NCBI RefSeq assembly: GCF_020630935.1
Contig: NZ_JAHDIG010000005.1
Span: 1-64,000, forward strand
DNA length: 64,000 nucleotides
Reading direction: 5' to 3'
Origin: Bernardetia sp.
GTDB lineage: Bacteria > Bacteroidota > Bacteroidia > Cytophagales > Bernardetiaceae
This document shows positions 5,601-59,391 of this stretch, piece after piece. Position 1 is the stretch's first letter. Every line of letters starts with the position of its first letter. A program made the translations under genes and the position numbers. The notes beneath the pieces were generated by a model that saw only the letters and a list, made by a program, of their open reading frames with translations, made no database searches and had not been told where the DNA came from.

Positions 5601-6525
5601 AAATTATTCTAGCTCCATTGCCTTCACAGACAGGATTGATATAGGTTTGAATAGGAATATCTACTTCTTGATAAACTTTTTCTAAGGCATTTTTAATTAT
5701 TTCAGCTTGTTCTTTACCTTTTGCCATTGCGAAAATAGAAGGACCAGACCCAGAAATTCCAAAAGCAAGTGCGTCGTTTTCTAGTGCTGCTTGTTTCATT
5801 TCTTTAAATTTAGGAATCAGCAGACTTCGCATCGGCTCAATAACCAAATCTTGTAATGATTCTGAAAATAAATCATAATTTTTTTCATACAAACTGACAA
5901 CAAACGTTCCCATCAGTCCCATTTGCTTGCTAAAAGTAGCTACTGAAAGCGTAGATTTTAAGATTTTTCTTGAATCAGAAGTATTAAGTTTTACGTGTGG
6001 ATAGAGTGTAACAGCATATAAATCTTCCAAAACTGGAAGCTGTAAAATATCGCTTTGTTTGTTTCCTTTGGAGAGAATAATTCCACCCAAAAGAGAAGGG
6101 GCAACATTATCTACGTGTGCACTTCCACACGCCACACGTTCGCCTTCGGCTGCAAAAGCAACCAATTCTTTTGTAGAATATGGTTTTCCGATAAGTTCAT
6201 TATATCCAAAAGCTGCTACTGCACTGCTGGCACTGCTAGAACCCAAACCACTACCTGAAGAGAAGCCTTTTTTCAAGACAATATCAACACCCATAAATTC
6301 ATTGTGGGCTTCCTGCATCTTTCGAATCACGACAGACGAACAGTTTTTATCAACTTCTTTGGGAAGATTTTCTCCATTTATGATTTCTAAAATTTTGTTT
6401 TCGGTAGTGCCATTAGGAGTAAGTGTAATTTCATCACCCATATTTCCCAAAGAAAGCCCTAGAATATCAAAACCGACATTGAAGTTGGCAATAGTGGCTG
6501 GTGCGAAGGCTGTTATTTTTTTCAT
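5599..6525 (-). CDS. thrB: Homoserine kinase
   Basis: GHMP kinase motif GSGLGSSSASSAVAAF. Probable start at MKKITAFAPATIANFNVGFD (6525); the listed ORF extends upstream to 6606. Confidence 0.85.
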   Translation of the reverse strand: MKKITAFAPATIANFNVGFDILGLSLGNMGDEITLTPNGTTENKILEIINGENLPKEVDKNCSSVVIRKMQEAHNEFMGVDIVLKKGFSSGSGLGSSSASSAVAAFGYNELIGKPYSTKELVAFAAEGERVACGSAHVDNVAPSLLGGIILSKGNKQSDILQLPVLEDLYAVTLYPHVKLNTSDSRKILKSTLSVATFSKQMGLMGTFVVSLYEKNYDLFSESLQDLVIEPMRSLLIPKFKEMKQAALENDALAFGISGSGPSIFAMAKGKEQAEIIKNALEKVYQEVDIPIQTYINPVCEGNGARII

Positions 6526-6625
6526 TTTTACATTAAAAAAGTAGGTCAAATGGCTTGCCTTTGACCTAATAATAGAACAATAACCCTCAATAAGAAGTAA
6601 AGCCATCGTTGAGGATTGAAAGGTT

Positions 6626-9118
6626 TTAGTTATTCATAATAAACATCAAATCAGCAAAAACGCCACTTGCTGTTACTGCTGCTCCAGCTCCTGCGCCTTT
6701 GATAACCAATGGTTCATCTACATAACGATTTGTGTTGATGGCAACTACATTGTCTTTTCCCTCCAAGTTATAAAATGGACTATCCGAAGGAATTTCTTGC
6801 AGAGCAACCGATAAATCTCCTTTTTCCATCTTAGCAACTACTTTGAGTTTATTTCCTTTTTCGTTTGCATTTTGATAAAGCGTTTTGAAATGATTTTCGT
6901 GCTTTTTGAGGTTTTCAAAGAGTTCTTCTACCGATTTAGAATTGGTACATTCATCTGGCAAGAAGCTATTGAACGTAATATCTGACATTTCTCTGTTTAG
7001 TCCAGATTCTCTTGAAAGAATAAGGATTTTTCGCATTACATCCAGTCCAGAAAGGTCTATGAGTGGATTGGGTTCGGTATAACCTTCTTCTTTTGCTTGC
7101 AAGACAACATCAGTAAACTGATTTTCTGCATTATAATTGTTGAAAATAAAGTTCAAACTCCCAGAAATAACGGCTTCTATTTTGTTTATCTTGTCGCCAC
7201 TAATTCGAAGGTCATAAATTGTTTTCAAGATAGGCAAGGCAGCTCCTACCGAAGTTTCGTATTTGAAATAGATATTTCTTTCTTTGGCGAGTTTGTTGAG
7301 TTTCAAATACTTTGAGTATTCACTACTACACGCAATTTTATTACAAGTAACTACCGAAATGCTATTTTTGAGTAAAAACTCATATCCTTCACTTACAATA
7401 TCAGAAGCTGTGTTATCAATAAAAACACTATTGCGAAGGTTCAATTCTTTGATTTTTTCAAAATATTCAGTTAATGAAGAATATGTTTTGACATTCTTGT
7501 TTTTTACCTTTTTCTTGAAATTCAAAACCTCTTCTTTGGTTAGTTCTTCCACACCTTCAAAAGTTTCTGATGCTTCTTTTAAAAGCATTTTTTGACTGTT
7601 AGCAATACCTATTATTTTAAGGTTGATTTGATATTCTTCGATGAGTTTTTGCTTTTGAGCAAAGAGAATATTTATAAATTCTGTTCCTACATTGCCAATT
7701 CCTGCAATAAAAACGTGTACATTTTTGACAGCCGAAGCAAAGAACTTTTCATGAATTACATTGAGAGCCTTATCTTCGTCTTTTTTATCGATAACAATAG
7801 AAATATTTCGCTCCGATGCTCCCTGTGCTACTGCTGTTACGTTGATGCCATTTTCTCCAATTGCTCCAAAAACTTTTCCAGCCAAGCCAATCGCATTTTT
7901 CATGTTATCGCCTACAAGTGCTACAATGCACTGATTTTCAGTAGCCTTTACTTCATTCATCCATCCTTTTTCAATCTCTTTTGCAAAAGCTGAATTGAGT
8001 GAATCCTTGGCAGTTTGTAGTTCAGATTGTTTGATTCCTATTCCGATACTTTGCTCAGAACAGCTTTGTGTAATCAAGATAATATTGATATTTGCCTCTT
8101 CTAAAATCTGAAATACTCGTCTTGCGCTGCCCTTCTGTTTAGCAAGTCCGATGCCTGAAACTGTCAAGATAGCAATATCGTCTAAGGAACAAATACCTTG
8201 AATTTTGTTGTCTGTAACTTTGTTTTCATTACTGATAAATGTCCCTTCTTGCTCTGGAAAAAATGTGTTTTTAAGATAAAGAGGAATATTTTTGTTCATG
8301 ACAGGCAAAATAGAAGGTGGATATAACACCTTTGCTCCAAAATATGCCATTTCGAAGGCTTCTTCATAACTCAACTTCTGTAATGAATGTGTTGCCTGTA
8401 CTTTTCTTGGGTTGGCAGTTTGCATTCCATTGACATCACTCCAAATTTCTAAACTGCTTGCATCAACAGCATTTGCATAAATAGAAGCTGAAAAGTCTGA
8501 ACCTCCACGCCCAAGCGTAACTGTTTCACCGTTCTGATTATGTGCAACAAAACCTGCTGCAATATAGCTTTTACTTTTATCAACTTTAGTAAGAATATTT
8601 GTTGTAGTTTTATCTAAATTTAGATGAGCATTTAGATAGTCTTTAGATTCGAAAGTGTTGGTCGAAATTAATTTTCTACTTTCTAGTAAATCTACTTTTA
8701 TTGGATTTTTTGTATTGACAGAGAGATATTTCTGAACGATAATGGAAGAGAGTTGCTCACCGAAACTTAAAATAGTAGCTCGTGTTCGGTCAGAGAGTTC
8801 TCCAAGTGTTCCAACGCTTTCACAGATGGCTTCTAGTTGATTGCATTTTTGTTGAACTTCTACAAAAAGGTCTATCTGATGCGATTCTGAAACAAGTTGT
8901 TTGATAAAATCAAAATGAAAACTTCTAAATTCTTCCAACAAAACAGTATGTTTTCCTTCTAAAGAAAGACTGGCAATTTGTTCTAGTTTATTGGTGATTC
9001 CAGAAAAAGCAGAAACTACGACAATAAAATTTTCAGTTTTTGAAACAAGAATAGCTGCAATTCTTTCAAGATTGGAAGTTGAGGAAACGCTTGTTCCTCC
9101 GAATTTTAAGACGAGCAT
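6626..9118 (-). CDS. thrA: Bifunctional aspartokinase / homoserine dehydrogenase
   Basis: N-terminal MLVLKFGGTSV aspartokinase signature and ACT domains. The C-terminal homoserine dehydrogenase domain has an NAD-binding GIGNVG motif. It sits directly upstream of thrB. Confidence 0.95.
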   Translation of the reverse strand: MLVLKFGGTSVSSTSNLERIAAILVSKTENFIVVVSAFSGITNKLEQIASLSLEGKHTVLLEEFRSFHFDFIKQLVSESHQIDLFVEVQQKCNQLEAICESVGTLGELSDRTRATILSFGEQLSSIIVQKYLSVNTKNPIKVDLLESRKLISTNTFESKDYLNAHLNLDKTTTNILTKVDKSKSYIAAGFVAHNQNGETVTLGRGGSDFSASIYANAVDASSLEIWSDVNGMQTANPRKVQATHSLQKLSYEEAFEMAYFGAKVLYPPSILPVMNKNIPLYLKNTFFPEQEGTFISNENKVTDNKIQGICSLDDIAILTVSGIGLAKQKGSARRVFQILEEANINIILITQSCSEQSIGIGIKQSELQTAKDSLNSAFAKEIEKGWMNEVKATENQCIVALVGDNMKNAIGLAGKVFGAIGENGINVTAVAQGASERNISIVIDKKDEDKALNVIHEKFFASAVKNVHVFIAGIGNVGTEFINILFAQKQKLIEEYQINLKIIGIANSQKMLLKEASETFEGVEELTKEEVLNFKKKVKNKNVKTYSSLTEYFEKIKELNLRNSVFIDNTASDIVSEGYEFLLKNSISVVTCNKIACSSEYSKYLKLNKLAKERNIYFKYETSVGAALPILKTIYDLRISGDKINKIEAVISGSLNFIFNNYNAENQFTDVVLQAKEEGYTEPNPLIDLSGLDVMRKILILSRESGLNREMSDITFNSFLPDECTNSKSVEELFENLKKHENHFKTLYQNANEKGNKLKVVAKMEKGDLSVALQEIPSDSPFYNLEGKDNVVAINTNRYVDEPLVIKGAGAGAAVTASGVFADLMFIMNN

Positions 9119-27522: not shown

Positions 27523-30006
27523 TTACTCTTTACTTTCTGTATTTTCAGGCAATTTCAAGCTATCCAAAACGCTGCTGAGTTGTGTGCCTTTCAGAAGATT
27601 TGCAAACACGTCTGCCACAGAGTTTCCTCCCAAAATTGCGAGTGGAGCCATCGAATCTGCCATTTTTTGAGCAAGTGCTTTATCAGAAAACGATTGCAAG
27701 GCTGCAATAAGGTCTGGAGAAACAGCTTTTGCTTTGGCTACTACTGCCTCTACTTCTGTTTGTTCTTCCAAAATGTACTGCTCTAGCTGTTTTTGAGCTT
27801 TTTCTATCTCAACGGCATCTTTAGCTCTTTGTCTAGTAAGTTCGTCTTCATTGATTTGATTGAGCGTTTTTTGTTCGTCTAAATTAGCTTGTAAATGACG
27901 CTCCTTACTCATTATTTCACTTTCAATTTTAGATAAAGTAACTTCTAAGAGTTTTTTGACTTCTTCTTTTTGAAGTTCGTAGATTTTCTGCTTAGTTTCA
28001 GATTGTGTAGCTGCGATTTGTCTTGTAATGGCTTCGCTTTCTTGTGTAAATTCTAATTTTCGTTTTTCAGCATTTATGCGAAGTGTTTGCATAACTGTAT
28101 CTTGCTGTGAAGAAATAAGTAGATTTTCAATATTTGCATCACCCAAACTTATATCCAAAATCTCAACGTCGTAGATACGCATTCCATTTTCTTCAAAAAG
28201 TCGTCCTGTGCGTTTCCCTGTTTTCTTGTCAGACTCTCCTAAAATAGCATCTCTCAAAATCGTAATTCCATTGGCATAAAATTCCATAATTGGATATCTT
28301 CTGACAGTATTTCGGATATACGAACGCATGTGGTCTGTTAAAAATTTGACATAGTTTTCCACATTAAACCACTTTTCAGAATCTCCTTCAAAATTGACAC
28401 GATACGAAAGATGTATTCTAACTTGCGTGTAATCTGCCGATTCTGCCATTATCTCATCCGAAACTTTATTATACAACACTCTCAAATAAACCGTTTTGAT
28501 AGAATTTGCTGTTGTTTTTGGTGTTCCTGTTGAAAGCTCTATACCTTCTAATTCTTCATCGTATTCCAAAAGATACGATTGAGGACCTTCAATGACTTTT
28601 CGTTTTCCTGTCTTGCTAACCACTAAAACAGCATATCCTGTCCAAGGCGCAATCGTAACAGCTCCTTCAAATTTTGTATCTAATGTCACCATACGAGGTG
28701 GCGTAAACGAACTATCACGATTAAATTCGTCGCTTACTACTTCGTCTGCAATCTTAGCTTTTTTTCGTAATTGTTGTTGTGGAGCTTCTGGTGCTTGATT
28801 TTGTTCTTGTAATTCAAAATCAGTAACGAAATTATCGTTTTTAGCAATACTTTGCATCGCCATATTGTACTCCATTGCTTCATTGTTATTTGGAAACCAA
28901 AGTGATGTTTGCTTTTTTGTCAAAACTCTTCGTACCAAAACAAATTCTCTTGGGTCTGGCAAAAACATCGCTGCACCTTTTTTGAGAGCGACTGTTCCTG
29001 TTTTACGATTGAGGTAATAACGTCCTTCTCCTGCTGGAATAGCAATGGCATAATGACGTTCTTTTTTTCCATAACGAATAATGGCGTGTTCTGGGCGAGG
29101 ATAATAAATCATTTGGTCTTTTCCAGTAATGAAAAGCTCGTCGCCTTCTTTATACTCGTTTTTTCCTTCTTTATAAGGAGCAATGACTTTTATATAGAGT
29201 CCACTCATTTCATTGAGTTCGATGGCTTTAAATTTTCGTTGTCCATTTTTCTCAATAAACTCTTCTGTTGGTTCTGGAAAGACTACTTTTGGACCTTGAA
29301 TATAGCGTTTGTTTCCATCTTCGTTGAGCAAAATACAGTATTCCAAACGTTCTAAAGTTACAGCCTCTCGCACATATTCATCTGTTTCGTAACCGTATGA
29401 GTCTGTTCTGACCACTTCAATTCCTGTGGGTGGAATATAAAACGAAACAGCATCGCCACGAATAATCAGAAGCTGACCCATTGTAAGACTTTCAGCTACT
29501 TTTTTGAGTTCTTTTACTTCTTTATCCTCTCCTTCTTTTGTTTTGATGACGGATTTACCCCAATTTTCTCGTGCTTGTTGTTCATCATACACACGAACCA
29601 ATAAATATTGATTCGAACTCAAATTATGTCCTCTGACTACTCTTGCCATTTGTCCAGCCCAAAGTGCAAAAGAAATAGGACCTGAAATATTTACTTTTCT
29701 TCCTACATTGAGTTCGGCTAAATTGTTACTTGTTCCTACTTTTGGTGGGTTATTATCTTTTGAAGGGTTTTTCAAAACTATATACCATCCTTCTGGTGCA
29801 ATGACAAAAGAACGCATCGAATCTTCTAAAGTACATTTTTCGAAACGTTTGGTTTCGTCGTCGAACATCACAGGACGGTCAGTATTGGCAAGGCTAGTTT
29901 TGTAAGGACCTACATAAACATTGATATTTCCTTTAGTTTGGTCAGAAATAAATGCGTACTCATTAGGAGCTAAAACTAAATCTCTTTCTCGGTTACTATC
30001 AGACAT
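27523..30006 (-). CDS. Major vault protein (MVP) homolog
   Basis: N-terminus PNEYAFISDQTKGNINVYVGPYKTSL...RPVMFDDE parallels the first MVP repeat of eukaryotic MVP ([36 protein letters not shown]). About 8 tandem ~55-aa repeats, a shoulder region, a long C-terminal coiled-coil cap-helix, and a C-terminal ...PLAILGGNSVADVFANLL region resembling the MVP cap ring. Confidence 0.8.
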   Translation of the reverse strand: MSDSNRERDLVLAPNEYAFISDQTKGNINVYVGPYKTSLANTDRPVMFDDETKRFEKCTLEDSMRSFVIAPEGWYIVLKNPSKDNNPPKVGTSNNLAELNVGRKVNISGPISFALWAGQMARVVRGHNLSSNQYLLVRVYDEQQARENWGKSVIKTKEGEDKEVKELKKVAESLTMGQLLIIRGDAVSFYIPPTGIEVVRTDSYGYETDEYVREAVTLERLEYCILLNEDGNKRYIQGPKVVFPEPTEEFIEKNGQRKFKAIELNEMSGLYIKVIAPYKEGKNEYKEGDELFITGKDQMIYYPRPEHAIIRYGKKERHYAIAIPAGEGRYYLNRKTGTVALKKGAAMFLPDPREFVLVRRVLTKKQTSLWFPNNNEAMEYNMAMQSIAKNDNFVTDFELQEQNQAPEAPQQQLRKKAKIADEVVSDEFNRDSSFTPPRMVTLDTKFEGAVTIAPWTGYAVLVVSKTGKRKVIEGPQSYLLEYDEELEGIELSTGTPKTTANSIKTVYLRVLYNKVSDEIMAESADYTQVRIHLSYRVNFEGDSEKWFNVENYVKFLTDHMRSYIRNTVRRYPIMEFYANGITILRDAILGESDKKTGKRTGRLFEENGMRIYDVEILDISLGDANIENLLISSQQDTVMQTLRINAEKRKLEFTQESEAITRQIAATQSETKQKIYELQKEEVKKLLEVTLSKIESEIMSKERHLQANLDEQKTLNQINEDELTRQRAKDAVEIEKAQKQLEQYILEEQTEVEAVVAKAKAVSPDLIAALQSFSDKALAQKMADSMAPLAILGGNSVADVFANLLKGTQLSSVLDSLKLPENTESKE

Positions 30007-31243: not shown

Positions 31244-31320
31244 AACCAATTACAAATTGAAAGTTAGCGAAGCTAATTTTTTTTGATTAAACAATACTAT
31301 CTAAAGAAAATACAGTTTTT

Positions 31321-31360
31321 ATACTGATTACTGGTAACTGTTTACTGATTACTGATAGAA
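31321..31360 (+). repeat. Copy of the dispersed (TTACTGNTAACTG)x2 motif immediately 5' of the queA start codon
   Basis: ATACTGATTACTGGTAACTGTTTACTGATTACTGATAGAAG then GTG start. Same motif at 47535-47570 and 48013-48047. Confidence 0.5.
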
Positions 31361-32617
31361 GTGGAAAAGATAAATTTAGAAGATTATACCTATAATTTGC
31401 CAAGTGAGCGAATTGCACAAGAACCTTTGAAAGAAAGAGATAGTTCGAAACTCTTAGTTTATAAAGAAGGTTCTATTTCACACCATCGTTTTAGAGAAAT
31501 TACTAATTTTCTGACAGAGGATTATACTTTGTATTTTAATAATACGAAAGTTATTCCTGCACGTCTGTTGTTTGAAAAAAAAGCTACTCAGAAAGGACAA
31601 AATGGAAAAGGTGCAACCATCGAAATTTTCTTGCTACATCCTATTTTACCTACTGCTGATGTAAGTGAAGCAATGCTGAGTAAAGAAAATTGTACGTGGA
31701 AATGTGTAGTAGGAAATCTTAGGAGATGGAAAGAAGGGCAAACGTTAGAAAGAGAATCAGAAATTGATGGTCAGAAAGTACATATTCAAGCCAAAATTGC
31801 TGATAGAAAGGAGCTTCTGATAGAACTAGACTGGAAGGATAAAAATCATCAGACTACAAATATTCCATTCGTAGATATTGTTGAAAAGTTGGGTGTAATG
31901 CCACTTCCTCCCTACATCAAAAGAAAAGCAGAAGAAAAAGACGCAGACACATATCAGACGATTTATAGCAAGGCTTCAGGAGCAGTAGCAGCTCCCACAG
32001 CAGGTTTGCATTTTACAGAAAATGTCTTGCAAAATCTTGCAGAAAAAAACATCAAAACCAACGAACTTACGCTGCACGTAGGTGCAGGAACATTTCAACC
32101 TGTCAAAAAAGAAAATGCTGAAGATGTAGCTACTCACACAATGCACTGTGAGCAGATTGTCATAACGAAAGAAAATATTGAAAGCATTATAAACTCTAAA
32201 AAAGTAGCTTCTGTTGGAACGACTTCGATGCGAACCTTAGAAAGTCTGTATTGGTATGGAGCAAAGATTTTACTTAAAAATAATACTACTTTTTTTGTAG
32301 AAAAATTAGAGCCTTATAGTTATGACGAAACTATAAAATTGCCGTCTAAAAAGGAGAGTTTTGAAGCAATTTTAAATTATATGCATGTTTCAAACCAAAA
32401 ACAACTTACTGGTGAAACAGAAATCTTTATACTTCCTTCTTATAACTTCAAAGTCTGTAATGTTCTGATTACTAATTTTCATATGCCAGAGACCACCCTT
32501 ATTTTGCTAGTGGCAGCTTTTGTAGGCAAAGATTGGAGAAAAATCTACCAATCGGCTTTAGAAAATGAGTATCGTTTTTTAAGTTATGGAGATTCTTCGT
32601 TGTTGTTTTTAAAATAA
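31361..32617 (+). CDS. queA: S-adenosylmethionine:tRNA ribosyltransferase-isomerase
   Basis: LEDYTYNLPSERIAQEPL..., MPLPPYIKR, GTTSMRTLES and NFHMPETTLILLVAAF motifs. Probable GTG start. Confidence 0.9.
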   Translation: MEKINLEDYTYNLPSERIAQEPLKERDSSKLLVYKEGSISHHRFREITNFLTEDYTLYFNNTKVIPARLLFEKKATQKGQNGKGATIEIFLLHPILPTADVSEAMLSKENCTWKCVVGNLRRWKEGQTLERESEIDGQKVHIQAKIADRKELLIELDWKDKNHQTTNIPFVDIVEKLGVMPLPPYIKRKAEEKDADTYQTIYSKASGAVAAPTAGLHFTENVLQNLAEKNIKTNELTLHVGAGTFQPVKKENAEDVATHTMHCEQIVITKENIESIINSKKVASVGTTSMRTLESLYWYGAKILLKNNTTFFVEKLEPYSYDETIKLPSKKESFEAILNYMHVSNQKQLTGETEIFILPSYNFKVCNVLITNFHMPETTLILLVAAFVGKDWRKIYQSALENEYRFLSYGDSSLLFLK

Positions 32618-44121: not shown

Positions 44122-45402
44122 CTATTTACAATAACGAATATCAAAAGGAATAATTTCGAACTGTGTGCCATTCCATTTTAACGTTGTTCTTTCCATAAAT
44201 TTTCCTCCACCTTTTCTAGTTTTATTTAACTCTCTCTCTTCTGCTGATGAAATAGGATTTAATTTTCCATTCGGCAAATCAAAGTAAGGATAACGATTGG
44301 GGTAAAAAGGTCTAGTGTTAAAACTAAGTTCTTTTTTTTGTTTGTCATAAGCAGGTAATATCCAATAAATTCTACTGTATTTTGCAAAACTCCTTGAAGA
44401 TTTCCCTGCAATACAATCCTTACAACGCACTATTTTTCCCTTCTTTATTTCAAAACCTTGAACAACTACAAACCAACTATCCATTCCTCCTCCAATATAA
44501 TCATACACTACTACATACAAAGGGTTTCCTTCTCTTTCAACTTTGAAAATTGTAATAGGTAAAGCCCAAAAATTTTCTTCGCTTGTTTCTAACTCTCCTT
44601 TTTCGTTTTGATATTCATGTTCAAATTTGAAAGTAGATATGTCTTCTGTAATAATAACATCTTCTGAAAAGCGATAAACTCCATAAGCTATTGCAGACCG
44701 ATTGTTCCAACCTTGATTATAACTAAACGTATAAATACGAAAATTTCCATCATCAGAAATAATAATCCCTTCTTTTTCAACATAACGGGGTAAACCATAT
44801 TTAAAGCCATTTGGCTCTTTCAAGGCTTGTTTTAATAGTTTACTTATCATTCCAATAGAATCAGCACGCTTATCATCAATCATAATTGGATAAACATCCA
44901 AATAAGAGAGCAACTTGGTTTCAAGTTCTTTAAGTTTTGCAGACGGTTCAATTTCACTTTTGAAATTATTTTTTGAAATATCTTTATAGTGAGCAGGAAA
45001 ATAGCGACCAAAATCTATTTTTGAAGTGTCTATAATCATTCGTACAGCAGCTCTTCCTACTACTGAATCTTTTTGGTAATTACGTGATAGAAAAGCTATC
45101 GTTTTAAACTTTGGGTTATTATTTACTCTACTCAAATCATATAATCCATAAAACAAAGCTGTTATGTCATTCATAGAATCAGGTAATTTGCAATTTGCTA
45201 ATTCTACATGAATTTGTGATAAACTATCCTTTTCTGTAACTGTATAAGCTGTTGAGTTGTAAATTTTCTCTAATACATCTGTTGCTCTTTCTTGCATGTC
45301 TTTACTTTCTATTTCAGAAAGCCATTTTTGGACAGGCTGTGGTTTATCTTTACATGAAAATAGACAAACAGAAAATAAAAATAAGATAGTTATTCTTTTC
45401 AT
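44122..45402 (-). CDS. Hypothetical lipoprotein, translationally coupled to ftsI
   Basis: Lipobox LFSCKDK. Its start abuts the ftsI stop (45402/45403). No MurE signatures. Confidence 0.5.
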   Translation of the reverse strand: MKRITILFLFSVCLFSCKDKPQPVQKWLSEIESKDMQERATDVLEKIYNSTAYTVTEKDSLSQIHVELANCKLPDSMNDITALFYGLYDLSRVNNNPKFKTIAFLSRNYQKDSVVGRAAVRMIIDTSKIDFGRYFPAHYKDISKNNFKSEIEPSAKLKELETKLLSYLDVYPIMIDDKRADSIGMISKLLKQALKEPNGFKYGLPRYVEKEGIIISDDGNFRIYTFSYNQGWNNRSAIAYGVYRFSEDVIITEDISTFKFEHEYQNEKGELETSEENFWALPITIFKVEREGNPLYVVVYDYIGGGMDSWFVVVQGFEIKKGKIVRCKDCIAGKSSRSFAKYSRIYWILPAYDKQKKELSFNTRPFYPNRYPYFDLPNGKLNPISSAEERELNKTRKGGGKFMERTTLKWNGTQFEIIPFDIRYCK

Positions 45403-47529
45403 CTACTCCTTCAACTTCAAATAAATTGTTTTTCCTTTTTGAATTGCTCCTCCTGGGTTGAGAGATTGTGAGACAATTCTCCCTTTGCCTTCAAAGGCGA
45501 CTTGCATTCCTAAGTTTTCCAATAAATACAGCGCATCACGCAAACGCATTCCACGCACATCTGGAATCAGACTTGCAGCAGCTTGATTGTCTATCCACAT
45601 AACTGTATCAGTAGCTACTTTGGTTTTTACCCATTGTTGAGCTGTTTGGTTCTGCGTTTTGATGCCTAACTGCGAACATACCAAATCCAAATCTGGACGG
45701 TAGCCAGCACGAATAAATGGCAAACGCATGTGCAAACTATCCATTGCTGTCGCTTCAACCTCTGAAAGAGGTTTGTGCAAATAACGTTGATATACCACAT
45801 CTGAAACTTGACGAAAAACAGGAGCAGCTACTTCGGCTGCATAACGCTTGTCTGTTTTTGGGTCATCAATCACAACGATACAAGAATATTTTGGATTATC
45901 GGCAGGGAAATATCCAGCAAAGGAAGTGTAGTGGTCTTCGGTATATTCTCCGTTTCTAACTTTTTCGGCTGTTCCTGTTTTTCCTGCAATCTGATAGGTT
46001 TTTGTATTAATTTTTTTAGCTGTTCCATTTTCTACTGCACCACGCAACATCGTTTGTAAAATCTTGACTGTTTTGTCTGAAATAATTTCTTTTTTTGTTG
46101 TTGTATTTTCAAAACTTTTCAAGACTTTTCCTGCTTGGCGAGTCTGACTGACAATAATTGGCTGAACAGTTACGCCATTGTTTGCAATCGCATTGTAAAA
46201 AGATAATGTTTGCAGAGGAGAGAGTTTTAGCTCATATCCAATAGACATCCAAGGCAGTGTACTTCCACTCCACGAAGAATCGGAAGGGGATTTTAGATAA
46301 GGTTGTGCTTCTCCAGCCATCTGAAAACCTAAAGGACGATTAAGACCAAATTTTTTGAGATAATCCACATATTTTTGCTCGTCTTTACGAAAATATTTCC
46401 ATACCAAAAGTGACATGCCTACATTGGAAGATTTTTCAAAAACCTCTTGTACACTTAGTTTTCCTAGTGCAGAAACATCACGCATAATGGCATCATCATA
46501 ATATTTATGAACGCCGTCACCTGTTTGTACGCTATCTTTCAATGAAATAGGAATGTCCTCATTTTCAAAAAGAGCAGCCATAGACATAAGCTTAAATGTC
46601 GACCCAGGTTCGGCAAGTCCCATATCTCCAACAGCATAATTATTGTTTTCTACATACGAACCGTTAGAGTTAATTCCTAAATTGACAAGAGCTTTTATTT
46701 TTCCAGTCTCTACTTCCATTAAAATAATAGAGCCATATTCAGCTTTGTATTGGCGAAGCGCATTTTGCAGAATCTGATGAACTGTATCTTGTAAGTTTAT
46801 ATCAATCGTTGTTTGAATATCAATCCCCGGTTTGGGTCTGACTTGCGACATGTCATCAACTGGTTTCCAAAAACCACCTGCAATGAGTTCATAAAGAGCT
46901 TCTCCTGCAACGCCTTGTAACTCACTATTGAAACTATATTCCAATCCTCTACCATTCAAAGATTGTGTAGAATCTTCGTCGGTTACAAAACCTATAGTAC
47001 GTCTTGCAAGGTCATTGAAAGGCAGAAAACGTTTGTCTGTTTGCTCATAAATTACACCTCCCTTATTTCTTCCTTCTCTAAAAATGGGAAATTGGGAGAG
47101 TTTTTTATATTCTTCGTGGCTAATAAGTTCTCGGCTTAGAATATGATATTTTTTGTCGTTTTTTCGGTCTTCTCTTAAAAGATTGACATAATAGCTTGGT
47201 TCGTGTTCTTTAAAGAAATCAGATAAAAGTATTCCTAAAGAATCTATCCCACTTTCAAAAACAGCACTATCAGCCACAGTAGGGTCAATTGCCACACGAT
47301 AAAAAGGCAAAGAAGTAGCCAAAAGGCTTCCATCATCTGCCAAAATACTTCCTCTAGTGGGTTGTACGTCTCGCATCTCTACGCCCCTAGCTTTGCTACT
47401 CCATTTTTCGCCCTCCACTATCTGAATGCTCATCATTTTATAGACAATCACTAAAGCAATAAGTGAGACGACTAAAAAAGCAATTCTGACACGAGCGAGT
47501 ATATATCTTCTTATTCCTGTTTTTGCCAT
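45403..47529 (-). CDS. ftsI: Penicillin-binding protein (FtsI/PBP3-like transpeptidase)
   Basis: N-terminal transmembrane anchor, dimerisation domain, and transpeptidase motifs STFKLMS, SSN, KTGT. Confidence 0.9.
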   Translation of the reverse strand: MAKTGIRRYILARVRIAFLVVSLIALVIVYKMMSIQIVEGEKWSSKARGVEMRDVQPTRGSILADDGSLLATSLPFYRVAIDPTVADSAVFESGIDSLGILLSDFFKEHEPSYYVNLLREDRKNDKKYHILSRELISHEEYKKLSQFPIFREGRNKGGVIYEQTDKRFLPFNDLARRTIGFVTDEDSTQSLNGRGLEYSFNSELQGVAGEALYELIAGGFWKPVDDMSQVRPKPGIDIQTTIDINLQDTVHQILQNALRQYKAEYGSIILMEVETGKIKALVNLGINSNGSYVENNNYAVGDMGLAEPGSTFKLMSMAALFENEDIPISLKDSVQTGDGVHKYYDDAIMRDVSALGKLSVQEVFEKSSNVGMSLLVWKYFRKDEQKYVDYLKKFGLNRPLGFQMAGEAQPYLKSPSDSSWSGSTLPWMSIGYELKLSPLQTLSFYNAIANNGVTVQPIIVSQTRQAGKVLKSFENTTTKKEIISDKTVKILQTMLRGAVENGTAKKINTKTYQIAGKTGTAEKVRNGEYTEDHYTSFAGYFPADNPKYSCIVVIDDPKTDKRYAAEVAAPVFRQVSDVVYQRYLHKPLSEVEATAMDSLHMRLPFIRAGYRPDLDLVCSQLGIKTQNQTAQQWVKTKVATDTVMWIDNQAAASLIPDVRGMRLRDALYLLENLGMQVAFEGKGRIVSQSLNPGGAIQKGKTIYLKLKE

Positions 47530-47534
47530 TTTTT

Positions 47535-47570
47535 CAGTTATCAGTAAACAGTTATCAGTTACCAGTAAAA
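47535..47570 (-). repeat. Copy of the (TTACTGNTAACTG)x2 motif immediately 5' of the ftsI start codon
   Basis: Minus strand reads TTTTACTGGTAACTGATAACTGTTTACTGATAACTGAAAAA then ATG. Confidence 0.5.
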
Positions 47571-47624
47571 TTTATAATTGGCTACACCGAGCTATCGTTT
47601 AGCCTTGTTTGAATAAATATTTTA

Positions 47625-48005
47625 TCACTTACTATTTTCTTCAATTCTGATAAGTGGTTTTTCTCTTTCTTTCAAGCCCAAACGCTGTGCTTTTTTTGCT
47701 ACTACTTGTCTTCTACTATCATAGACATAACGAGTTTGTAGGGCGTGATAATCAATTTGTAGTTCTTCTACTTCTTGGCGCAGACGAGTAACTTCCCTTA
47801 CTACTCTTTCTGTATAATGACGATTTGCAATGTAGATGATTCCAAAGAAAGAAACATACAAGACATAAGGCATTATACGAAACAAAAAATCTTGGTCGAT
47901 AGTAAAATCCCATTCAGCTAAGTTTCGCCAAAAACCTCGTTTTGTAGGAATTTTGATTTCCTGTTCTTCTTCTACGTGCTTAAATGTATTTTGAATTTTT
48001 GACAT
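47625..48005 (-). CDS. ftsL: FtsL-like cell division protein (single transmembrane helix, coiled-coil)
   Basis: Small bitopic protein with a central transmembrane segment (IMPYVLYVSFFGIIYIA) and a C-terminal coiled-coil, located immediately upstream of ftsI. Confidence 0.6.
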   Translation of the reverse strand: MSKIQNTFKHVEEEQEIKIPTKRGFWRNLAEWDFTIDQDFLFRIMPYVLYVSFFGIIYIANRHYTERVVREVTRLRQEVEELQIDYHALQTRYVYDSRRQVVAKKAQRLGLKEREKPLIRIEENSK

Positions 48006-48012
48006 ATTTTTT

Positions 48013-48047
48013 TCAGTTACCAGTAAACAGTTATTAGTTACCAGTAG
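48013..48047 (-). repeat. Copy of the (TTACTGNTAACTG)x2 motif immediately 5' of the ftsL start codon
   Basis: Minus strand reads CTACTGGTAACTAATAACTGTTTACTGGTAACTGAAAAAAAT then ATG. Confidence 0.5.
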
Positions 48048-48125
48048 AATCTATAAATAGTTGATTTTAATATCAGTAGCTGAAACGATTTTAAGACATA
48101 TAATTTCCAAGTGAAATTAAACTGC

Positions 48126-48617
48126 CTACTCATTACTGTTAAGTGAACTTTCGCCACAGCCTTCAAACATCTGATTGTCGTATAAGAAAAAAGCGTGATA
48201 CTTATAATCTTTGTCTGACATTCCATCCGAACAAGCACATTCATAGCCATTCTTTACTACTAATTGAGCTGGTTTTCCATACTCATCTTCTAAGAAATAA
48301 GTATAATGAGATTCTATCAATCTGCCTTCGGCTGCTTTTGGCTCTACATAACTAAAAGTTATAGAATCTAATCCAAATTTAGAAAATAAAATTCCACTCT
48401 TACGAATTTCTGCATTCCAAAACGGTTCTGTACCGAAGGCTTTAAAAACTACTTCGTCTGTACTTACTTTTATAGTTTGTTTTTCAATGATTTTAGTTTC
48501 TGTTTTTTCTACTTCTGTATTTGTAGAGACAGAATCATCTGTACTTGCATGACTTTTTGAAGGTGCATCACAAGCAAAGCAAAATAATACTATAAATATA
48601 AGAATAATATATTTCAT
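48126..48617 (-). CDS. Hypothetical lipoprotein
   Basis: Lipobox LFCFACDAPS. C-terminal Cys-containing domain. Family not recognised. Confidence 0.45.
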   Translation of the reverse strand: MKYIILIFIVLFCFACDAPSKSHASTDDSVSTNTEVEKTETKIIEKQTIKVSTDEVVFKAFGTEPFWNAEIRKSGILFSKFGLDSITFSYVEPKAAEGRLIESHYTYFLEDEYGKPAQLVVKNGYECACSDGMSDKDYKYHAFFLYDNQMFEGCGESSLNSNE

Positions 48618-48674
48618 AATTTTTTATGGTTTGTAAAATTCAATTAAGGACTAAAGCCATCATTAAGGGTAAAA

Positions 48675-51359
48675 TTAAAAGCCTAAAGCCTCTTGAAACT
48701 CTGCTACTCTTCGGTCTTTTTCTTCATTTCTAATATCTGCCATCTTTTGCTCAATTTCTAGTTCTAATTTAGCTTCTTCTTCCAAAGCATTGCTCAAAAC
48801 GCTTAGAGCTTGATATGTATCTTTACGAGTTTGGACATTTGAATTAGTTTTGGATTGATAGGTCAGATATTCAATCCCTTTTTTCTGAACTTCTTTAGGC
48901 TGATTGATAAGATATTGTGTAAAGTGATTTAGAAAGTAACTCATTTCTGTACCCGAAATTCGGTCTAAATTCTTGACATACCAATCATATTTTCCTTCTA
49001 CACCAATAAGCGAATAATATTCTCCCAATCCATAAACAACATGACGCTCTTCGATGCTTTCCAAAGGCTCTACTTTTGAAAGTGCATTTGCTCCATAGGC
49101 ATTCATCAGAGAATACATAGTATTGCTAATTACAAAGTAAGAAGAGTCTTTTAATGTTTCTTCCCAAAGTTCTGGAAAAGCTCCGTATTGAGAAATAACA
49201 TCAATGGCTGAAGCACGTGTAAGGTTGTCCTTATCATTTTTTGCCATGTCTTTCAGAAGTTTGACAAGCTCTGTCAGTTTTTGAGTTACTTCATCAGACG
49301 TCGGATTTTCAATATTTTCAAGGTTATATTCTCCTAGTGAGCGAATGGCTTGTGTTCTGTATGCTCCAAAATCATTGTTTTTTGCTACCTCCATTAATAA
49401 ATTAAATGTTGTGTCATTGCCCACAGAAGCTGCTAAATTATATAACGCTTTCCTTTTTGGAATATAATTATCGTAATATTTTGCTTGCAAACGCCATTCT
49501 GCTGCCGATTTTTCATCCTGACTTATTTGAGCTAAGAGATAACCTGTTGGGTCAAAAACAACGAGTTCTGGATTTGATTCTGTTTTAAATTCAAAACTTT
49601 GTTCAGTTTTTTCCAAAATGAATTTGTGTCTTGTAGATTTTCCATTTTCCCAAATATCAATTTCTAAAGGTAAGAGATAGGTAGGTGAGTAGCGTAAATC
49701 TTGAGTTTGGGTAATGGTTAGTTTAAGTGTCCCGTCTTGATAATCTTGTAAAATAGTTAATTCTGGATGTCCTGCTTCCAAAAACCATTGATTGAAAAAC
49801 CATTTTAAATCTCTTCCTGTAACTTCTTCTGCAATAAGTCTAAAGTTATCAAGTTCAACAGACTTAAACGCATTTGCTTTGACATATTTTTGAAGAGTAA
49901 CCTTAAAGGCTTCATCTCCAATCTCTTGGCGCAACATATTCAAAATAACTGAACCTTTTGAATATGAATGAGAATCAAACATATCGTTTTCGCTTGTGTA
50001 GAAATAACGAATGATAGGCTCTCTCTTTGCCTGCGATTCTCTAAAATAACTTGTTTTATCATTGGCAAGGCTTTGGTCGGCTTCTTTTTTTCCTTTGCTG
50101 TGTTCTAACCAAAGATACTCTCCGTAGTTAGCAAAAGATTCGTTCATGGCTAAGTTTGCCCACGATTCGGCTGTCATAAGATCACCAAACCACTGATGAA
50201 AAAGCTCATGTGAAATAATTCCTTCCCAGTTGTGGTCTTCAATAGAACGTTTATCTACTAAAAGTCCTTCCATAAAAACAGAAGCACTCGTATTTTCCAT
50301 TGCTCCAGACGTATAATCACGGACAATCACTTGAGCGTATTTGCTCCAAGGATATTTGTAATCTAAATAATTAGAATAAAACTCTAGCATTTCAGGCGTT
50401 TTGCCAAAAACATCTTTTGCATACGGAGCATGCCATTTTTCAGTATAATAATATAGAGGAATATCCTTCCATTTGTCTTCAACAACAGCAAACTCTCCTA
50501 CTGCAACCATTGTAAGATATGGCGAGTGAGGTTTTTCCATTTTCCAATAATCAGTACGAGTTCCATCTCCATTTTTTTGAGAAGAAACTAACCTTCCATT
50601 AGAAAGTGTTTGTAAGGAATCAGCTATTGTGATATAAACTTCTTGTGTACCTCTAAAATTAGGAGCATCAAAGGTAGGAAACCACATAGCATTGTTTGAA
50701 GTCTCGCCTTGTGTCCAAATTTGTCTTGGTTTTCCTTTGGTTTTGCCTTCTGGATTGATAAAAAAGAAGCCTTCTTCTTCAATGTTTGAAAGAACGCTGT
50801 TTGTCCAAATAGCCTCGTTGGGTTTGGCAATGTAGCTTATCTCTATCGTAATTTTTTCTTCTTTTGTGTATTCTCTATCCAAACGAACAGTTAATAAAGT
50901 TCCATCATAATCCCATCGTAGAGGTTTTGTAGTCTCGTTTTTTGAACTTCCAGCCAAAAGTTTGATAGATTCGATAGCCAATCCTTTTGCATCTAAATCA
51001 ATTTTATTTTGAGAATAAAAATAAGGCTGAACAGTTAGGGTTGCTGTTGAGTAAATCCATTGATTTTCCCAGTCTGGTGTGATATTTAATTTTGTATGAA
51101 TTAAATCAAATATCTTGGTTTGGGTAGCATGATATTCTCCTTTTTTGGGTTTCCACAGAGGTTCTGGAAGGTCTTTTTTAAACTGATTTTCAGATTCTTC
51201 TATTGGTACAAGAAATTCATTGTTTGTATGAGTAGAATCTTGTGTATTGTTATTTGTAGCCTGTTGTGAAGATTTACAAGAAATAAAAAGTGAAGACGAA
51301 ATGAAAAATAGAACTGCAAAAAATAGAGACAGTGAAGAAAAATGTAGCGATTTATTCAT
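48675..51359 (-). CDS. M1-family zinc aminopeptidase (aminopeptidase N-like) with a C-terminal HEAT-like domain
   Basis: GAMEN motif (GAMENTSASVF) and HELFHQWFGD...NESFA (HExxH-x18-E). Signal peptide. Confidence 0.9.
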   Translation of the reverse strand: MNKSLHFSSLSLFFAVLFFISSSLFISCKSSQQATNNNTQDSTHTNNEFLVPIEESENQFKKDLPEPLWKPKKGEYHATQTKIFDLIHTKLNITPDWENQWIYSTATLTVQPYFYSQNKIDLDAKGLAIESIKLLAGSSKNETTKPLRWDYDGTLLTVRLDREYTKEEKITIEISYIAKPNEAIWTNSVLSNIEEEGFFFINPEGKTKGKPRQIWTQGETSNNAMWFPTFDAPNFRGTQEVYITIADSLQTLSNGRLVSSQKNGDGTRTDYWKMEKPHSPYLTMVAVGEFAVVEDKWKDIPLYYYTEKWHAPYAKDVFGKTPEMLEFYSNYLDYKYPWSKYAQVIVRDYTSGAMENTSASVFMEGLLVDKRSIEDHNWEGIISHELFHQWFGDLMTAESWANLAMNESFANYGEYLWLEHSKGKKEADQSLANDKTSYFRESQAKREPIIRYFYTSENDMFDSHSYSKGSVILNMLRQEIGDEAFKVTLQKYVKANAFKSVELDNFRLIAEEVTGRDLKWFFNQWFLEAGHPELTILQDYQDGTLKLTITQTQDLRYSPTYLLPLEIDIWENGKSTRHKFILEKTEQSFEFKTESNPELVVFDPTGYLLAQISQDEKSAAEWRLQAKYYDNYIPKRKALYNLAASVGNDTTFNLLMEVAKNNDFGAYRTQAIRSLGEYNLENIENPTSDEVTQKLTELVKLLKDMAKNDKDNLTRASAIDVISQYGAFPELWEETLKDSSYFVISNTMYSLMNAYGANALSKVEPLESIEERHVVYGLGEYYSLIGVEGKYDWYVKNLDRISGTEMSYFLNHFTQYLINQPKEVQKKGIEYLTYQSKTNSNVQTRKDTYQALSVLSNALEEEAKLELEIEQKMADIRNEEKDRRVAEFQEALGF

Positions 51360-57708: not shown

Positions 57709-59391
57709 ATGCCTAGCTTAAAATCCTTTTTTTCTTCTTTTTTGTCTTCTTTTTTAGCAATCCTGTTGCTTTTAGTGTGGAGTATGCCCATTTTGTATCT
57801 TTTTACGGCATTTGACGGAGAAAGTAGTACAGCTTGGAATCATATTGCTAAAAATCTTTTGCTAGATTATACATTAGGTTCTTTGAAAATGCTTTTGGGA
57901 GTAAGTATAGGCGTACTTTTGCTGGGTGTTCCGACGGCTTGGCTGGTTTCTACTACTGATTTTTTTGGACGTAGATTTTTTCAGTGGTCTTTGGTGTTGC
58001 CACTTGCAATTCCAGCTTATATTTTGGCTTATACGTACGCTGCTAGTTTGTCTTATACAGGTGCAGTAGGAATATTTCTAAGAGAAAACGGTCTGCCTTC
58101 TATACCAATCATGTCTGATTTTGGAGGTATTTTTATTCTCTCTTTGGCACTTTATCCTTATGTCTATGCAGTTAGTAGAACGGCTTTTTCCAATCAGTTA
58201 GGCAGTGTTTGGGAGGCTTCCAAAATGCTTGGGAAATCTTCTTTTTATACATTTTTTAAAGTCGTTTTGCCACTTGCTCGTCCGTTTATCTTTGGAGGAC
58301 TTCTGCTTGTGATGATGGAAGTTTTGAATGAATACGGAACATTCAAGTATTATGGCATTCAGACTTTTACGACAGGAATTTTCAGTGCATGGGCAAAATT
58401 TGGAGACGTAAAAGCTGCTCTTCGTCTAGCATTGTGTCTTTTTGGGGGGATTATTTTATTGGTGGCTTTGGAAAGAAATCAGCGTGGTAGAATGGCTTTT
58501 TCAGATGATAAAAATACGACACCTATGCCACGAAAAAAGTTAGGTTTTGTTTGGCAAATTTTAGCTTTTAGTTTTTGTCTTTTGGTATTTTGTTTGGCTT
58601 TTGGTTTTCCTGTTTTGCAGCTTATTTTTTGGACAATCAAAGAATTTCAAGATAAGGGAATAGATAAAGTTTTGAATGAAGAAATCTATAATTTGATTTC
58701 TCATACTATTACACTTTCCTTTTTGAGTGCTTTTGTGGTTTTGGTAGTAGCTATTTTATTAGGTCTTTTTCAGAAAAAAAATAAGAACTATATCGTTGGT
58801 GGGGAAGTCAAAAATAGAACAGTTTCAAGACTTCAAGCAAATACAACAAAATTTATCAGCCGAATTGCTACTATGGGTTATGCCGTTCCGGGGGCTGTGA
58901 TAGCTGTGGGAGTGTTGGGGGTATTTTTGTGGATTGATAAGAAACTGTATTCTTTTTTGTTGAATAGTTTTGACATAAAAGTAGGCTTGCTGATTTCTGG
59001 TACAGTCATTTCTCTAATTTATGCCTATTCTGTTCGTTTTTTAGCTGTGGGAGCTCAACCTATTGAAAGCCAGCTTTTGAAGATTGGAAATTCATTGGAG
59101 GCTGCTTCAAGAATGCTAGGAAAAAATGCTATCCAAACGTTTTTCAAAATTACGTTGCCTCTGCTTCGTCCTGCTATGCTGACAGCCTTACTTTTGGTGT
59201 TTGTGGATGTGAGTAAAGAACTTCCTCTTACACTTATTTTGCGTCCTTTCAACTATGATACGTTAGCGACAAAGGCTTATGAACTTGCTGACCAAGAGTT
59301 TGTGGCACAGTCTGCTTTACCTGCTCTTCTGATTATACTGATAAGTCTTTTACCTGCTATTTTGCTTTCTAAAATTGGTAGAAAGAAATAA
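57709..59391 (+). CDS. Fused two-domain ABC transporter permease (iron(III)/thiamine-type, FbpB/ThiP-like)
   Basis: 560 aa with two repeats of a six-transmembrane-helix binding-protein-dependent permease domain. Confidence 0.8.
   Translation: MPSLKSFFSSFLSSFLAILLLLVWSMPILYLFTAFDGESSTAWNHIAKNLLLDYTLGSLKMLLGVSIGVLLLGVPTAWLVSTTDFFGRRFFQWSLVLPLAIPAYILAYTYAASLSYTGAVGIFLRENGLPSIPIMSDFGGIFILSLALYPYVYAVSRTAFSNQLGSVWEASKMLGKSSFYTFFKVVLPLARPFIFGGLLLVMMEVLNEYGTFKYYGIQTFTTGIFSAWAKFGDVKAALRLALCLFGGIILLVALERNQRGRMAFSDDKNTTPMPRKKLGFVWQILAFSFCLLVFCLAFGFPVLQLIFWTIKEFQDKGIDKVLNEEIYNLISHTITLSFLSAFVVLVVAILLGLFQKKNKNYIVGGEVKNRTVSRLQANTTKFISRIATMGYAVPGAVIAVGVLGVFLWIDKKLYSFLLNSFDIKVGLLISGTVISLIYAYSVRFLAVGAQPIESQLLKIGNSLEAASRMLGKNAIQTFFKITLPLLRPAMLTALLLVFVDVSKELPLTLILRPFNYDTLATKAYELADQEFVAQSALPALLIILISLLPAILLSKIGRKK

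Follow-up and report, generated by a model that had tools for sequence, protein, structure and literature searches.

Degenerate TAACTGA-type heptamer arrays directly upstream of queA, ftsI and ftsL in Bernardetia and their possible role in translation initiation

Introduction

Tandem repeats of the heptamer TAACTGA were described just 5' of start codons, in the position of a Shine-Dalgarno (SD) sequence, by MacGregor 2015 (Front Microbiol 6:1397, PMC4679880). The 'Maribeggiatoa' genome contained 169 sets, most of them forward and a few nucleotides before starts, and the repeats were also found in 15 cyanobacteria and 5 Bacteroidetes. In Flexibacter (now Bernardetia) litoralis DSM 6794, 12 of the 14 sets were forward and lay 1-43 nt from a start. 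They preceded dapB, trpG/pabA, asnB, trpC, recR, accC, plsC, rplB, a thiolase gene and others (Supplementary Table 5 of PMC4679880), with copies between rplW and rplB, accB and accC, and trpD and trpC, and they typically ended in '...TAACTGATAACTGAAAAATG'. RNA structure and 16S complementarity were absent for the repeats, and a post-transcriptional role was proposed, with S1, Csp (cold-shock) and CsrA-like proteins as candidate binders (PMC4679880). Here we analysed 64,000 nucleotides of Bernardetia sp. DNA (NCBI RefSeq assembly GCF_020630935.1, contig NZ_JAHDIG010000005.1, positions 1 to 64,000 of the forward strand), referred to below as the window, in which arrays of heptamers with an ACTG core lie directly upstream of queA, ftsI and ftsL.

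Start-codon selection without SD sequences in Bacteroidota and cyanobacteria is only partly understood, and an array of this kind is a concrete candidate for a determinant. S1-binding enhancers of Escherichia coli lie just upstream of the SD sequence. Among RNA-binding regulators, HutP binds UAG triplets that recur every 7 nt and TRAP reads 11 GAG/UAG triplets; at the DNA level, MraZ boxes are direct repeats upstream of division genes. The cyanobacterial STRR heptamers STRR1 (CCCCAGT) and STRR3 (CAACAGT), reportedly described by Mazel et al. in 1990, are also tandem and intergenic, and their reverse complements, ACTGGGG and ACTGTTG, share the ACTG core, whereas the units and the hosts (heterocystous cyanobacteria) differ and STRR repeats are not known to be start-codon-proximal.

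Anatomy, placement and class of the arrays

A first-pass annotation of the window had reported the same ~35-bp element at three sites, and all three copies were found at its coordinates. It had described four units at 6-7-bp spacing; this proved inaccurate, as each array consisted of five head-to-tail 7-bp units of the form W-ACTG-N-W with a strict 7-bp period (Table 1). Tandem Repeats Finder reported the queA array, over the interval given in Table 1, as 5.0 copies of period 7, and a period-7 self-match scan of the window recovered the queA and ftsI arrays. All three arrays were sense-oriented relative to the downstream gene, and the spacer between the last ACTG and the start codon was 6 nt for queA (ATAGAA, the last ACTG ending at 31354), 5 nt for ftsI (an A-run) and 8 nt for ftsL (AAAAAAAT), in agreement with the 5-8 nt and the orientation given by the annotation. 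With the start codon as reference, the arrays thereby occupied roughly -5 to -45. The ftsI array sat in the 95 nt separating ftsL from ftsI, two genes that run in the same direction. No sequence common to the three copies was found beyond the 35-bp array, and none of GGAG, GAGG or AGGA was present in the three window leaders.

The window has a GC content of 33.7%. With one mismatch allowed, the 12-mer TACTGRTWACTG had 12 matches in it against 0.95 expected, and none of 100 shuffles reached 12. The remaining one-mismatch matches (8230, 12424, 48127 and 50545) were single pairs within or antisense to genes, and no further start-proximal array emerged in the window when ACTG/ACTA cores were sought in runs of at least two at 7-nt spacing. 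In a rough model (47 genes, 10.9 kb of intergenic DNA), three intergenic arrays would all end 2-10 nt before a sense start with a probability of ~7e-6. The sole other period-7 array in the window was a T-rich run at 58559-58593 within an open reading frame (ORF). Followed to 58608 (+), this run is an imperfect repeat of ~7 TTTTGGC-like copies with 68% matches, in a 560-aa ORF (57709-59391), and it shares no sequence with the ACTG arrays.

The three window arrays are very probably degenerate members of the TAACTGA-type repeat class. The class is already published, and the queA, ftsI and ftsL arrays are new as members. The window arrays share with the published repeats a 7-nt unit in tandem, the ACTG core, the end '...AACTGAAAAATG', the host genus, with an orthologous queA array in B. 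litoralis DSM 6794 (L248), and the absence of a functional theme among the genes. All three were intergenic, forward and a few nucleotides before a start, in place of an SD sequence, and none of the three leaders had a canonical SD sequence between array and start. Their units were one- to two-mismatch variants of TAACTGA without strict exact adjacency: read in that register, the ftsI array is TAACTGA TAACTGT TTACTGA TAACTGA, and the number of exact TAACTGA units was 0 for queA, 2 for ftsI and 1 for ftsL. Because two adjacent exact units never occur, the window arrays would escape the exact-match search of MacGregor; queA, ftsI and ftsL are missing from the published B. litoralis table. Perfect TAACTGA arrays place stop codons in all three frames, whereas the window arrays had stops in only two of the three, with the ftsI and ftsL start frames open through the array. 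All-frame stops are a consequence of perfect repeats and do not define the class, and a reading of the window copies as an all-frame stop or termination-reinitiation cassette was rejected on these frames.

Conservation and unit turnover in Bernardetia

Relatives were gathered by homologue searches with FtsI and QueA; a search with FtsL gave only two close matches. The queA array, with 5-6 units and a GTG start, was present in B. litoralis DSM 6794, Bernardetia sp. OM2101, MNP-M8 and a fourth genome, which with the window makes five, and one locus (L249) had a 1-nt indel in it. The queA upstream flanks of the relatives could not be aligned with the window. The ftsL array was found with five units in identical order in two further Bernardetia lineages (L124 and L125), three in all. 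Array and spacer together were 90-95% identical at ftsL, compared with 67-69% at third codon positions and 0.53, the shuffled level, in the 60-nt flank. These sequence comparisons indicate constraint on the ftsL array. At queA the corresponding values were 66-75%, 60-69% and 0.40-0.55, the last again at about the shuffled level. A function is supported because the queA and ftsL arrays were kept across Bernardetia while their flanks were randomised. Three independent assemblies of the species (the window and the Logan assemblies L121 and L122) had identical arrays, and therefore gave no sign of copy-number switching; the arrays were also identical between L125 and L126. Arrays of WACTGNT in reverse orientation lay just 3' of the M1 peptidase stop in three relatives (L123:1924-1942, L124:796-828 and L125:1343-1361), and at the matching place in the window (48618-48674) this reverse array was absent.

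At the ftsI position, sister species (FtsI identity ~89-90%) carried other heptamer arrays directly before the ATG, and in one of them the ftsL position had also changed (Table 1). Across 177 kb of Bernardetia DNA, 14 period-7 arrays were found, whereas periods 5 and 8 gave none and period 10 gave 1, and period 7 was the only repeat period that is not a multiple of three. Ten of the 14 were directly upstream of starts, in a sample enriched for the three studied genes. Position and period thus outlast the unit sequence, and a turnover with fixed period points to a 7-nt register rather than to one specific sequence. The specific link that the annotation had drawn between division genes and tRNA modification was not supported, given the lack of a theme among the B. 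litoralis genes and the replacement of the ftsI array in sister species.

The ftsL-ftsI intergenic region of L124 (2368-2495) contained (AATTACG)n after the ftsL stop and (CGTAATT)n before the ftsI start. These inverted arrays were predicted to form a hairpin of -36 kcal/mol (z = -3.9) that extends from the ftsL stop almost to the start of ftsI, and such a predicted hairpin could couple translation of ftsL and ftsI. A second heptamer family, AATTACG/AATTAAA, was seen directly after the stop of the upstream gene at L124:2368-2395, L248:9848-9875 and L251:9897-9927; the upstream gene is ftsL in L124 and an HATPase gene before queA in L248 and L251. The window keeps only a remnant of this family, near 31244-31262.

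Table 1. Heptamer arrays and downstream genes in the window and heptamer arrays in sister species
Feature	Location	Strand	Description
Array 5' of queA	31322-31356	+	TACTGAT TACTGGT AACTGTT TACTGAT TACTGAT
Array 5' of ftsI	47567-47533	-	TACTGGT AACTGAT AACTGTT TACTGAT AACTGAA
Array 5' of ftsL	48046-48012	-	TACTGGT AACTAAT AACTGTT TACTGGT AACTGAA; ACTA in second unit
queA	31361-32617	+	S-adenosylmethionine:tRNA ribosyltransferase-isomerase, 418 aa, GTG start; Pfam PF02547, E = 1.6e-99
ftsI	45403-47529	-	class B penicillin-binding protein with PASTA domain, 708 aa, ATG start; Pfam PF00905, PF03717, PF03793
ftsL	47625-48005	-	Bacteroidetes FtsL-like, 126 aa, ATG start; Pfam PF19579, E = 3.5e-21
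L124, directly before ftsI ATG	2448-2495		(AATTCGT)5
L125, directly before ftsI ATG	2458-2493		(TTCTAAM)4
L123, directly before ftsI ATG			degenerate TAAT-containing period-7 run
L123, ftsL position	1975-2024		(TACCTCT)-type array

Distribution across taxa and orientation bias

A degenerate four-unit pattern was found at no fewer than, that is at least, 120 loci in contigs representing one genome per species. The matches listed were mostly from cyanobacteria and also from Anaerolineae, Planctomycetota, Acidobacteriota, Poribacteria, Bacteroidota and more, and many of them ended in '...AACTGAAATG'. Orientation was counted for arrays of at least three units; the ORF threshold was set to 100 aa in genome and metagenome contigs and to 60 aa in viral contigs. 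Among the matches listed from genome contigs, 23/178 forward arrays had an ORF start within 10 nt, against 6 in reverse; the metagenome contigs gave 30/166 against 6, and IMG/VR viral contigs, with the start within 20 nt, 70/240 against 24. Near starts, forward arrays were 4-5 times commoner than reverse ones across phyla and viral contigs. This bias is new in the present analysis, as are the conservation of the queA and ftsL arrays and the unit turnover at ftsI and ftsL.

The metagenome matches spanned 30-71% GC, and in a contig of 71% GC (L159, 3117-3236) an array lay 3 nt before the ATG of a 130-aa ORF. An AT-rich 20-mer, AACTGTTTACTGATAACTGA, was seen in metagenome contigs of 61-71% GC (L159, L148, L195, L199 and L239), where it stands out from the local composition. 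In a family of viral contigs with a GC content of ~0.6 (L298, e.g. 6410-6676, L292 and L260), heptamer arrays made up nearly every intergenic region, with 28 arrays in 9 kb. The order there was repeated CAGTGAT... blocks, (AAAGGCA)n, 5-12 forward TTACTGA units, an SD-like motif and the ATG, so that the arrays lay just 5' of SD-like sequences.

Some arrays preceded genes for RNA. In the 16S-23S spacer of Polaribacter, a sense array between tRNA-Ile and tRNA-Ala lay ~14 nt upstream of tRNA-Ala (L039:3489-3514, -), and in a metagenome contig a sense array lay between two tRNA genes (L190:128-147, +). Arrays were also paired in the listed genome and metagenome matches (loci L001-L120 and L128-L247): in ~62 pairs a forward array (NACTGNN)n lay no more than 120 nt downstream of a reverse array (CAGTNNN)n, against 2 pairs with the forward array first. 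Counted by collection, such pairing concerned 53/200 and 71/193 forward arrays, with 2 + 2 in the opposite order. Several of the reverse/forward pairs in Microcystis flank a recurrent ~57-nt spacer.

A possible role in translation initiation

The folds of the 90-nt leaders were within the range of shuffled sequences (z = +0.5, +0.6 and -0.1), and both a special RNA structure and a special lack of structure were rejected on this result. Folded alone, the arrays gave z = -0.1, -0.3 and -2.2, the last reflecting a weak G-U hairpin, which was predicted for the ftsL array alone. Taking the 16S rRNA of Polaribacter (L039, Bacteroidota) as a proxy for Bernardetia's own, complementarity to the arrays was not above chance, the longest matches of 6-9 nt being within the shuffle range, and the duplex energy with the 16S 3' tail was no better than that of shuffles. 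Base-pairing with 16S rRNA was rejected, as there was no excess over shuffles with this proxy. The covariance models of Rfam 15, applied at their gathering score, had no match in the whole window.

As the tentative best explanation, we propose that the arrays form an RNA-level leader platform that is bound in a 7-nt register by S1 or a Csp-like protein and tunes initiation, and we give this a probability of roughly 0.4. Three points of this proposal are inferred: transcription of the array, an effect on translation and the identity of the partner. The arrays would lie in the mRNA leader of genes without SD sites, where the array RNA would offer an unstructured, G-poor, 7-nt-periodic, single-stranded platform. 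An OB-fold protein that binds single-stranded RNA, either 30S ribosomal protein S1 or a protein with a cold-shock domain, would bind the array in register, and the bound protein would determine or tune initiation at the neighbouring start codon. The platform is the most likely reading because the placement is start-locked and sense-only, because one copy lies in the ftsL-ftsI gap, because ftsL shows selection on the array and because the 7-nt register persists despite turnover. The viral arrays just 5' of SD-like motifs, together with the lack of structure and of rRNA pairing, argue in the same direction. Co-transcription of the co-directional ftsL and ftsI would place the ftsI copy in mRNA rather than in a promoter. 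The lack of significant predicted structure fits a single-stranded binding platform. Of what the annotation had offered under the heading of a cis-regulatory element, namely an operator, a translational element in the 5' untranslated region or a small repetitive extragenic palindrome (REP), the translational option stands, as it fits the non-random, orientation-specific, start-tied placement and the published hypothesis; the operator is disfavoured and the REP was not supported.

The proposed platform resembles S1-dependent AU-rich enhancers and standby sites (the E. coli rpsA leader and phage leaders), which likewise present a single-stranded, G-poor segment 5' of the initiation region and work without SD pairing; the position of the viral arrays 5' of SD-like motifs adds to the likeness. 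The known S1 enhancers differ in having neither a 7-nt period nor an ACTG core, and S1 is here a candidate binder of the arrays. For cold-shock proteins, PMC4679880 cites a report that CspB binds heptamer units, each protein taking up one heptamer. A broader version is unlikely: heptamer-periodic leaders would be a general, sequence-flexible substitute or helper for SD sequences, on which the tandem OB-fold domains of S1 or Csp dock in a 7-nt register. Position and period would be what is conserved in it, and the unit would be free to vary, as do WACTGNT, AATTCGT, TTCTAAM and TACCTCT at the ftsI and ftsL positions of sister species. If true, bacteria of several phyla and their mobile elements would use such a platform, and SD-poor bacteria would have a class of translation-initiation determinant that had gone unrecognised.

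A number of observations weigh against a platform for translation. Only ~13-18% of the arrays across taxa lay within 10 nt of an ORF start, and many cyanobacterial TAACTGA arrays are distant from starts (PMC4679880). Arrays are not confined to protein-coding starts, and translation cannot be the role of those in the Polaribacter spacer and between the two tRNA genes. The reverse-then-forward pairs complicate a purely translational role. The sequence specificity of S1 is reportedly low (PMC4679880), and the recurrence of the same ACTG-core heptamer at 30-71% GC suggests specific recognition. 'Unstructured' is a property of the composition and not of the repeat. The queA array was barely above synonymous-site conservation, and promoters may partly coincide with the arrays of queA and ftsL. 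In the later literature that was searched, the 2015 paper was cited without further data, apart from one inconclusive Nostoc preprint on other heptamers, and no experimental evidence from any organism was found.

Alternative explanations

The arrays could instead be neutral or selfish heptamer microsatellites, in which slippage favours 7-nt units that are tolerated in AT-rich leaders without SD sites and apparent conservation reflects common descent and slippage-driven homogenisation. In many prokaryotes, heptanucleotide repeats outnumber every other class of long simple-sequence repeat according to Mrazek 2007, as relayed in PMC4679880, and the predominance of period 7 in Bernardetia DNA, the unit turnover at ftsI and ftsL between sister species, the 5 versus 6 copies and the 1-nt indel at queA, the near-synonymous conservation of the queA array and the minority of arrays near starts across taxa would all be explained. 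We nevertheless regard this as somewhat unlikely, because homogenisation would have erased the variant order of the ftsL units and neutrality their identity, whereas both were kept in three species next to a randomised flank. A 4-5-fold forward bias near starts is also not expected of neutral intergenic repeats, and the same holds against them for the three window arrays and the 12 of 14 B. litoralis sets that are forward and start-proximal, for an AT-rich heptamer before an ATG in genomes of up to 71% GC, and for arrays that are identical in three independent assemblies. Should they be neutral microsatellites after all, the present analysis would be of use as a warning that such arrays recurrently give rise to false 'regulatory motif' calls. 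On another reading, hypothesised by MacGregor 2015 (PMC4679880), the arrays would be recognised sequence-specifically by a dedicated factor in trans, which could be a small RNA or a multimeric RNA-binding protein, and the genes behind them would form a post-transcriptional regulon that is switched as a unit. The specificity of the ACTG core across phyla and GC contents would suit this, and the fixed five units at ftsL in three species would suit a multimer. TRAP and HutP sites are likewise short motifs at fixed spacing on single-stranded leader RNA, with a period that is also 7 nt for HutP; they control termination or the SD sequence of one operon, whereas the arrays are dispersed over unrelated genes and phyla. 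No homologue of HutP or TRAP was found, though no search was aimed at them. The array-bearing genes are functionally incoherent, the ftsI array was swapped for unrelated heptamers in sister species with gene function apparently kept, the copy number elsewhere ranged from 2 to >40, and the phyletic spread would demand a widely shared or horizontally mobile factor. We consider a dedicated regulator improbable. Sites for RNA processing or insulation, at which cleavage of a single-stranded, AU-rich array by an endoribonuclease or a separation of structural domains would free the downstream cistron or tRNA from the upstream RNA, would account for the sense arrays next to tRNA genes, for arrays between operon cistrons and for the reverse-then-forward pairs, which are able to form long hairpins as in the L124 example. 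This role is quite improbable for the window arrays, which have no inverted partner and no significant structure, and for which the tight 5-8-nt spacing to the start would be unnecessary.

A transcription-factor operator, as put forward in the annotation, or a promoter part has in its favour that direct repeats before division genes recall MraZ boxes, that the queA and ftsL arrays are in regions that must also contain promoters, and that reporter assays in Nostoc showed an influence of other heptamer repeats on the effects of LexA and NtcA. A 7-bp period, however, puts successive sites on different faces of the helix, the position follows the start codon and not a fixed promoter distance, one copy lies in the ftsL-ftsI gap, the orientation bias is strong, and queA and many unrelated genes carry the same element. 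DNA-level elements are therefore very unlikely. MraZ-like control of the division and cell wall (dcw) type was rejected, since neither mraZ nor rsmH is upstream, where a 163-aa ORF without a Pfam match is found, since the period is 7 and not ~10, and since queA also has the element. A REP or a miniature inverted-repeat transposable element (MITE) was not supported: there were no shared flanks, terminal inverted repeats or palindrome, and no significant hairpin other than the weak one in the ftsL array. Phase-variation (contingency) loci, in which slippage alters the copy number and switches expression, have a counterpart in the 5'-region heptanucleotide repeats that drive switching in Haemophilus influenzae (PMC12721329), and 7-nt-step indels do occur between Cyanothece strains (PMC4679880). 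Before the HMW adhesin genes of H. influenzae, 7-nt tandem repeats also lie in the 5' untranslated or promoter region, but there they are perfect, hypervariable and upstream of surface adhesins (PMC12721329), whereas the window arrays are imperfect, stable and upstream of housekeeping genes. Imperfect units suppress slippage, the copy number was the same in all three assemblies and fixed at five for ftsL in three species, the arrays are outside the ORF, and ftsI and ftsL are essential. In place of the perfect repeats and copy-number polymorphism that mark such loci, we found imperfect units and arrays identical across assemblies, and phase variation is extremely unlikely.

The element is short, portable and orientation-specific, lies in the ribosome-binding region, is retained by selection upstream of essential genes such as ftsL, and occurs in genomes of 30-71% GC and in viral contigs. 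Its length of 35 nt and a culturable host genus would make it easy to test directly.

Genes downstream and surroundings

The start codons of the three genes (GTG at 31361, ATG at 47529 and ATG at 48005) were consistent with alignments of orthologues, and the queA GTG was kept in the five genomes. Deposited NCBI Bernardetia sp. proteins were 100% identical to FtsI over 708 aa and to QueA over 418 aa, with the same starts. Between the HATPase-domain gene and the queA array, a terminator-like hairpin, TTAGCGAAGCTAA, is followed by a T8 run (31263-31290, +). queA therefore probably has its own promoter, in the ~30 nt before the array or overlapping it. Inspection by eye upstream of the arrays gave no convincing match to the Bacteroidetes-type promoter motif TAnnTTTG.

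In the region 44122-51359 (-), ftsL and ftsI are separate from the usual dcw cluster. Upstream of ftsL are the 163-aa ORF (48126-48617), whose N-terminus has a lipoprotein-like signal, and an M1 aminopeptidase gene, and downstream of ftsI a 426-aa ORF without a Pfam match takes the place of murE. In L125, the genes downstream of ftsI encode a DNA methylase and a HaeII-type restriction enzyme. Elsewhere in the window, an 827-aa ORF at 27523-30006 (-) matches the shoulder and repeat domains of the eukaryotic major vault protein (PF11978, E = 1.9e-32; PF17795), and this major vault protein-like gene was kept near queA in several Bernardetia genomes.

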